Below the pieces are notes generated by a model that was not told the origin of the DNA, ran no database searches, and saw only the letters and a program-made list of their open reading frames with translations. A DNA stretch of 290 bases. Source: a phage. Shown here one piece after another: positions 1-290 of the stretch (the stretch's first letter is position 1; each line of letters starts with the position of its first letter). The translations under genes were made by a program, and so were the position numbers. Where the stretch lies: the sequence record AF056251.1. One strand, given 5' to 3'.

Positions 1-12
1 AATGGACATACT

Positions 13-246
13 TTAAATAGTTATCTCACCAGGTTTGCTAACAGTAACAGCCGGAGTAGAGAAATTTTTATTAGTATATATTTCTACTTTGCCATTACGT
101 TCTTTAACATCACGCACTTTACCATATTCAGTAATGATGCCATTTTGTTGGACTTTAACATTACCGTTTTTCATAAAAACTTTGGTAGATGCTAGAGAAC
201 TGAAACTAACTGCCGAAACCATCAGTGCAATAATAAACTTATTCAT
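13..246 (-). CDS. Small secreted protein of unknown function: 77-aa precursor with an N-terminal Sec signal peptide and a basic mature domain of about 58 aa
   Basis: The minus-strand frame is open from 288 to the TAA stop at 15..13. I call the start at ATG 246..244 because GAGGAAG (253..259) sits 6 nt upstream and the encoded N-terminus MNKFIIALMVSAVSFSSLA has the n/h/c organisation of a Sec signal peptide. A 91-codon open frame is unlikely by chance in DNA this AT-rich, where stop codons are frequent (my rough estimate is about 1 in 1000). Third codon positions are A/T-biased, matching the overall composition. No homologue recognised from memory. Confidence 0.72.
   Translation of the reverse strand: MNKFIIALMVSAVSFSSLASTKVFMKNGNVKVQQNGIITEYGKVRDVKERNGKVEIYTNKNFSTPAVTVSKPGEITI
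190..246 (-). other. Sec-type signal peptide (residues 1-19, MNKFIIALMVSAVSFSSLA) with predicted signal peptidase I cleavage between Ala19 and Ser20
   Basis: It has a positively charged n-region (MNK), a hydrophobic core of about 12 residues (FIIALMVSAVSF) and a polar c-region ending S-L-A, which satisfies the -3/-1 small-residue (AXA) rule. There is no Cys at +1 and no lipobox, so signal peptidase II processing is not expected. Confidence 0.6.
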
Positions 247-252
247 CAGTAT

Positions 253-259
253 CTTCCTC
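253..259 (-). promoter_or_regulatory. Shine-Dalgarno ribosome-binding site (GAGGAAG) for the CDS starting at 246
   Basis: The reverse complement of 253..259 is GAGGAAG, complementary to the 3' end of 16S rRNA. It is followed by a 6-nt spacer (ATACTG) and then the ATG at 246..244. Confidence 0.6.
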
Positions 260-277
260 ACTACAGTCACGGCATAC

Positions 278-283
278 ATCATA
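278..283 (-). promoter_or_regulatory. Candidate -10 promoter hexamer (TATGAT) for the small secreted protein gene
   Basis: The minus strand reads TATGAT, a 5/6 match to TATAAT, 31 nt upstream of the ATG at 246. That would give a leader of roughly 24 nt. The matching -35 position lies beyond the window end, so this rests on the hexamer match alone, in AT-rich DNA where such matches are common. Confidence 0.2.
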
Positions 284-290
284 ATCATTG

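Follow-up and report, generated by a model that had tools for sequence, protein, structure and literature searches.

T5-like phages are a classic model and are widely used in biocontrol, and to our knowledge most genes of the block around their tRNA genes have no known function. Two described groups of small exported proteins lie closest to the one reported here. The DUF903 (YgdI/YgdR) family consists of small SH3-like lipoproteins of the periplasm. T5 itself makes Llp, a lytic-conversion lipoprotein that acts from the periplasm to block the receptor FhuA (PMC9586334). The gene analysed here resembles the Llp gene in coding for a small T5-like protein that would be made soon after infection and exported periplasmically, a likeness of function by analogy only. 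Llp, unlike our protein, is a lipoprotein whose gene lies beside that of the receptor-binding protein and co-varies with receptor choice, whereas the T5.052 family, to which we assign our gene, is conserved across T5-like phages with different receptors. We saw no similarity to Llp in sequence, nor does it figure among the top Foldseek matches. The T5 counterpart, T5.052 (YP_006880.1), has 98 aa and is annotated “single transmembrane domain”; our literature search found no paper that mentions the gene. What the 290-nt stretch of phage DNA analysed here (the window) carries is a variant allele of this catalogued, uncharacterised T5-like phage family, and we consider it probable that we are dealing with a real T5-like gene whose product is an exported beta-meander with N-G hairpin turns and, by inference, a periplasmic role.

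The program-made list of open reading frames gives one substantial frame in the window, at 288..13 on the minus strand. Read from ATG 246..244 to the stop TAA 15..13, it codes for a product of 77 aa, MNKFIIALMVSAVSFSSLA followed by STKVFMKNGNVKVQQNGIITEYGKVRDVKERNGKVEIYTNKNFSTPAVTVSKPGEITI. The start at ATG 246 is favoured over ATG 288 because M1 is kept in every aligned family member, and it is supported as well by the ribosome-binding site GAGGAAG and by an overlap with the upstream stop like that of BF23. The end of the upstream gene is identical to its BF23 counterpart and overlaps the start of the coding sequence by 8 nt (ATGAATAA), the same as in phage BF23; this 8-nt overlap of the T5.053 and T5.052 homologues suggests translational coupling. 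The interval 16..189 on the minus strand, in which the recurrent turn motifs had been noticed, corresponds exactly to residues 20-77, the stretch that remains once the predicted signal peptide is cut off. Beyond the coding sequence, scans of the window for Rfam families, promoters and terminators gave no feature. An ORF of 25 aa at 84..161 lies inside it in a different frame and was disregarded. The features are collected in Table 1.

Table 1. Features of the 290-nt window, with positions counted from its first base and residues from M1 of the 77-aa product.
Feature	Position	Strand	Remarks
Coding sequence, 77 aa + TAA	13..246	-	Shortened allele of the T5.052 / BF23_00054 family (phrog_4821)
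Shine-Dalgarno-like GAGGAAG	253..259	-	Upstream of ATG 246..244, read directly from the sequence
3' end of upstream gene	239..290	-	T5.053 / BF23_00055 homologue (phrog_2855), ending in NDYDVCRDCSEEDTDE and a stop
Predicted Sec signal peptide	190..246	-	Residues 1-19; rule-based n/h/c analysis
Mature domain, predicted all-beta hairpin meander	16..189	-	Residues 20-77; AlphaFold2 model
Motif KNGNVKV	171..151	-	Residues 26-32
Motif YGKVRDV	126..106	-	Residues 41-47
Motif RNGKVEIY	99..76	-	Residues 50-57
N27-G28 turn, strands 1/2	163..168	-	Gap between predicted strands 22-26 and 29-34; N27 24/24; position 28 is G in 18/24, else N/Q
N35-G36 turn, strands 2/3	139..144	-	Gap between predicted strands 29-34 and 37-43; N35 23/24, G36 24/24
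G42-K-V-R45, predicted kink/bulge of the long central strand	112..123	-	G42 and R45 24/24
N51-G52 turn, strands 46-50 / 53-57	91..96	-	N51 19/24, G52 22/24
Conserved loop Y57-T-N-K-N-F-S-T-P-A-V67, candidate binding surface	46..78	-	58-66 modelled without regular secondary structure
Aberrant 3' end of the allele	1..32	.	R72P, T77I, premature TAA; similarity lost left of about base 9

The closest match to the window protein is BF23_00054 (WLW40663.1), with 98.7% identity in amino acids (over residues 1-76) and 98.2% in nucleotides. Among the PHROGs, phrog_4821, whose annotated function is unknown, was matched with an E-value of 2e-42 and 144 bits, residues 1-76 aligning with profile positions 1-76 of 99; a weaker second match was to the related family phrog_30402. 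By these similarities we assign the window gene to the T5.052 / phrog_4821 family. It has the signal peptide, the hairpin core and the upstream neighbour with the 8-nt overlap in common with T5.052 and BF23_00054, and it differs from them in ending at residue 77, in its unique P72 and I77, and in the sequence that follows downstream. Typical members run to 98-99 aa and end in a conserved tail, TQRSNNSDSFTCRYDCDFEGEDE.

In tblastn searches 531 phage records carry the family; among the matches listed, the records are 84-125 kb long, and the close matches (at least 79% amino acid identity among those listed) span residues 1-76. Counted by organism, Escherichia, Salmonella and Klebsiella names predominate, and phages of Yersinia, Serratia and other T5-likes are present too; the family occurs in essentially all T5-like phages. 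The E. coli genomes and plasmids searched gave no match, which argues that this is neither a host nor a plasmid gene. Pairwise dN/dS values against BF23, T5, Eps7 and smaug range from 0.06 to 0.44, which marks it as a genuine gene subject to purifying selection. An exhaustive HMMER profile search through 1.84 billion representatives returned 13 proteins at E ≤ 0.001, P0001 among them at 9e-57, and the nine genuine representative clusters consist of proteins of 86-111 aa.

The window gene comes from a T5-like phage (Demerecviridae) and belongs to the block of early genes that adjoins the tRNA genes, a position that follows from the T5 annotation and the published description of the T5 gene clusters (PMC8624392). 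It stands directly after the T5.053 homologue, as in T5-like phages, and its neighbours in the same unit are small genes, all annotated without function; the unit groups small early proteins that are directed to the envelope. The slot just downstream is mosaic, being occupied by a homing endonuclease gene in T5 and smaug and by a 420-nt gene in BF23 and Eps7. The HNH homing endonuclease genes lie directly downstream in both phages (T5 hegE, L002 3639-4151; smaug, L006 1494-2006), and phage Tennessee carries an extra ORF of 204 nt (L007 1440-1643) between the T5.053 and T5.052 homologues. The sites immediately flanking the gene are insertion hot spots, and the BF23 genome paper ascribes such mosaicism to homing endonucleases (PMC10644984).

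Two observations on the neighbours may be recorded here. In the T5 annotation, T5.049 and T5.048, small proteins with two transmembrane segments each, share the promoter-to-terminator unit of T5.052 (T5: L002 2593-3332; BF23 homologues: L001 5959-6243 and 6321-6698), and spanin genes lie about 2 kb beyond them. The upstream gene (window 239-290, minus strand; L001 4727-5008; T5.053 homologue, phrog_2855) ends in VCRDCSEEDTDE before its stop, and the full-length T5.052 family ends in TCRYDCDFEGEDE, so that both of these adjacent small genes code at their ends for a Cys pair and then an acidic tail.

The three turn motifs that an earlier note on this DNA had picked out are all present on the minus strand, in the mature part of the 77-aa ORF. 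Their spacing had been described as regular, which does not hold for the three by themselves (15 and 9 residues apart) and does hold once a fourth N-G, absent from that note, is counted: N35-G36 within Q33-Q-N-G-I-I, at 144..139 on the minus strand. Turn-type residues then stand at 27/28, 35/36, 42 and 51/52, with a spacing of 7-9 residues. The alternation of hydrophobic and charged residues said to follow each turn is clear in N29-VKV-Q and K53-VEIY and weaker in the other strands. Each motif had also been taken for an Asn/Gly turn; this fits N27-G28 and N51-G52 but not YGKV, which in the model lies within a strand or at its kink.

When the mature sequence was shuffled 100,000 times, three or more NG occurred with a probability of 0.006, two or more GKV with 0.003 and both together with 2e-5. 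The pattern thus goes beyond chance in a test that was devised post hoc; the conservation of the turn residues is stronger evidence. In an alignment of 24 family members, reaching down to 31% identity, N27, G36, G42 and R45 are invariant, N35 is kept in 23/24 and G52 and G73 are kept in 22/24; conservation is nowhere higher in the protein. The loop Y57-V67 is conserved as well: T58 and N59 are found in 22/24 members, A66 and V67 in 21/24, P65 in 20/24 and K60 likewise in 20/24, the others having R at this position.

To model the structure, AlphaFold2 was run with the 24-sequence alignment, which is shallow (Neff about 2.5). The mean pLDDT was 77 for the whole protein, 87-92 per 10-residue block of the mature domain and below 50 for residues 1-17. 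Strands were predicted at 22-26, 29-34, 37-43, 46-50, 53-57 and 67-70, and helix nowhere. In this model N27-G28, N35-G36 and N51-G52 fall exactly in the two-residue gaps between successive strands, the classic tight-hairpin position for Asn-Gly. With strands only, pLDDT of 87-92 in the mature part and the N-G pairs at turns, the prediction bears out the compact all-beta fold that had been put forward from the letters, and we take the view that the mature protein is a compact all-beta hairpin domain to be supported by the model. The mature part would fold as a small antiparallel beta-meander, in which each N-G pair would make a tight hairpin turn of two residues and each V/I-x-V/I stretch after it a strand; the N-G motifs would recur, and would be the most conserved, because they form the hairpin turns and strands of this meander. 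The model of full-length BF23_00054 has the same core, its central strand running continuously over 37-50 where that of the window model breaks at 44-45, and the BFVD models of three relatives, computed separately by the same method family, superpose with TM-scores of 0.69-0.81.

The class of the fold is another matter. Counting 74-78, five or six antiparallel strands are predicted in about 55-60 residues, in agreement with the strand count of a small barrel. The proposed SH3-, Sm- or OB-like class found no counterpart in Foldseek searches against the PDB, which returned no match at E ≤ 0.001; with the window and BF23 models the best E-values were 0.54 (IceA2) and 0.43 (Ctf4 propeller), the SH3-like Sac7d/affitin appeared only at 1.5-2.1 and the OB-like HypC only at 2.2. 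On these matches the domain is assigned to none of the three classes. Significant Foldseek matches, in the PDB with both models and in BFVD with the window model, were to family members only, and a sequence-profile search of the PDB returned nothing below E 0.3. Helicobacter pylori IceA2 (7xfp) and the propeller blades of BamB (3q54) and Ctf4 (4c8s) are antiparallel hairpin meanders of similar size, but at E 0.4-0.6, TM 0.2-0.3 and rmsd above 7 Å these matches are not evidence of relationship.

The N-terminus has the parts of an export signal: a basic n-region (MNK), an h-region (FIIALMVSAVSF) and a c-region (SSLA), and cleavage is predicted to follow S-L-A. The h-region has about 12 residues, its best 10-residue Kyte-Doolittle mean is 2.87, and small residues at -3 and -1 (S/A and A) are kept in most members. 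From these rules we infer that the predicted signal peptide is cleaved. In two distant relatives a lipobox takes the place of the SPase-I type signal (LLSC in P0022 and ISSC in P0025), and UniRef gives the name “Lipoprotein” to the P0022-cluster proteins of Erwinia phage KEY and Pantoea phage vB_PagS_AAS21. The S/A-x-A site together with the lipobox variants speaks for an N-terminal export signal that is processed and for a periplasmic location of the domain; judging from the sequences, the same beta domain appears to occur in soluble and in lipid-anchored versions. The N-terminal 19 residues would thus be a Sec signal peptide, and the 58-residue mature part would be sent to the periplasmic side early in infection.

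The window allele departs from its relatives at the 3' end. Codons 1-76 (228 nt) differ from BF23 at 2 positions and the 9 nt that follow at 3, after which the sequences diverge. Codon 78 is TAA in the window and CAA (Gln) in all relatives, and P72 and I77 are each unique (1/24). After G-E-I-T the relatives continue with T-Q-R, a Ser-rich stretch, C-x-x-x-C (21/23) and an acidic tail (23/23); with its stop after residue 77, the window allele has neither the Ser-rich linker nor the CxxxC pair nor the acidic tail. In the model the truncation costs little of the predicted core, only strand 74-78 being shortened. On the same strand, ATG 10..8 (ATG TCC ATT) is a possible start of a different downstream gene. 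The left-end junction was found in none of the viral, metagenome and genome contigs and phage records searched, and a short-query blastn and an exact-protein look-up were empty too. The shortened 3' end may mark a mosaic junction, and an artefact at the end of a contig would explain it equally well because the source stretch has only 290 bases. The copy may not be functional, since it is without the tail that other members keep at least in acidic form. The question of the allele leaves the inference on the fold unaffected.

Four other explanations bear on these observations. The earlier note had suggested a loose resemblance to DUF903, so that the protein might be a diverged member of that family (YgdI/YgdR, PF06004). 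Both are exported and of similar size, with about 50-55 mature residues rich in D/N-G hairpins, two distant members of the T5.052 family are lipoproteins, and hhalign of the full-length alignments gave a probability of 86%. The aligned region behind this value, however, spans only the signal peptide and the first hairpin, and when the signal peptides were left out the mature regions aligned with a probability of 0.3% and an E-value of 0.23; the DUF903 alignment consisted of YgdR relatives, all carrying PF06004, and one sequence that we take to be YgdI. PF06004 itself is absent at E ≤ 10 from the window protein and from all 24 members, and no structure of this family is among the top 50 Foldseek PDB matches of either model. 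Neither HMM nor profile similarity extends beyond the signal peptide, and the window protein has no lipobox; as the earlier note had said and the translation confirms, it has no cysteine at all. On these profile comparisons kinship with the DUF903 lipoproteins is rejected, and we give it hardly any credence. Improbable, too, is that the motifs are remnants of an internal duplication, that is, of tandem ancestral hairpin units of about 8 or 16 residues. Such an origin would account for the period of about 8 residues (N27, N35, G42, N51), for the mutual resemblance of NGNVKVQQ, NGIITEY and NGKVEIYT, and for the repeat proteins (IceA2, propeller blades) among the weak top Foldseek matches. But the resemblance is limited to turn and beta-pattern residues, which convergence explains equally well, and the units are too short for a statistical test of common descent; no repeat-family HMM was matched, and among the nine representative clusters no relative with a variable number of hairpin units was seen.

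The other two concern what becomes of the product. Were the N-terminus to stay uncut as a signal anchor, we would be dealing with a bitopic protein of the inner membrane that carries a small beta ectodomain, in keeping with the T5 annotation of a single transmembrane domain, with the strongly hydrophobic h-region (Kyte-Doolittle 2.9) and with P0020, whose hydrophobic segment is longer, about 20 residues. An h-region of only about 12 residues in our protein speaks against this, as does the small residue that nearly all members conserve at -1 and usually at -3, and the lipobox swap in P0022 and P0025 shows that, in some relatives at least, the N-terminus works as an export signal that is processed; we regard the anchor as quite unlikely. 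That the window copy is a dead or artefactual allele, either a recombination scar or the poor or chimeric end of a contig, and that the 77-aa product is not made, strikes us as unlikely but deserving of serious thought. The differences from BF23 are concentrated in the last 32 bases (R72P, T77I, CAA to TAA) and give way to total divergence, the source stretch is only 290 bases long, the junction is in no public record searched, the acidic tail is kept in 23/23 aligned relatives, and the slot just downstream is mosaic (homing endonucleases in T5 and smaug, another gene in BF23 and Eps7). Against it, little of the predicted core is removed, the natural relatives P0026 and P0027 are likewise without the CxxxC segment, and ATG 10..8 could open a new downstream gene, as at a genuine mosaic junction.

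Our preferred reading, a real gene for an exported beta-meander, leads to some suggestions on its role. The domain could be a small periplasmic binding module, with the loop Y-T-N-K-N-F-x-x-P-A-V and R45 as its putative surface, and it would bind a part of the envelope that the hosts of T5-like phages share, not the phage receptor. The family is present in T5, BF23, Eps7 and the Klebsiella and Serratia T5-likes, phages that use different receptors, and a shared envelope target is proposed because the family, unlike Llp, is conserved across them. Such a module, with loop Y57-TNKNF-x-x-PAV67 and R45 acting on a shared envelope component, is the best guess we can offer on function, tentative and with rather low confidence. 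Its role might be envelope conditioning, or exclusion or protection in the manner of Llp. Should this proposal hold, Llp is joined in T5-like phages by another exported early protein, one that is nearly universal. More doubtful still is the wider idea that the T5.052 family is an undescribed small periplasmic beta fold that lacks recognisable structural relatives in the PDB and is exported early to bind a conserved component of the host envelope, as a receptor-independent exclusion or envelope-protection factor beside the receptor-specific Llp. The gain so far is a fold-class prediction for a catalogued hypothetical protein and the removal of the wrong DUF903 lead, and a tiny, well-conserved and, as far as modelling goes, confidently predicted periplasmic domain would be an easy target for structural and functional experiments.

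Several weaker matches were set aside. Pfam and NCBIfam gave sub-threshold matches only, which we judged to be driven by the signal peptide and composition, among them BD_b_sandwich (E 0.014-0.023) and Tantalus; EF0750_LPXTG, which appeared in 16/24 members with E 7e-4 and 20 bits against a cut-off of 47; and BhsA and OmpV, which align only N-terminally, from residues 1-2 to 40-46. From the profile search, P0024, P0028 and P0031 were left out of the family as multi-repeat proteins with short-stretch matches and heterogeneous Pfam hits. P0024 (1481 aa, from a 65-kb contig of a JGI metagenome) is built of repeats of about 50 residues (containing PTGTITTRKLAPKNSSSCRYAIDL) and matches the C-terminal segment of the family (GEITTQRSNNSDSFTCRYDCD) in 10 stretches with an E-value of 3.7e-14, which may reflect homology of a tail module or a compositional effect; the segment that it matches is missing from the window allele. 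Two metagenome-derived members have unusual forms. P0009 has a 14-residue insertion (QQNGIIFLLYHYVP) that partially duplicates the second hairpin, and in P0029 the T5.053 and T5.052 homologues are fused by a frameshift; each has the look of an assembly or sequencing artefact.
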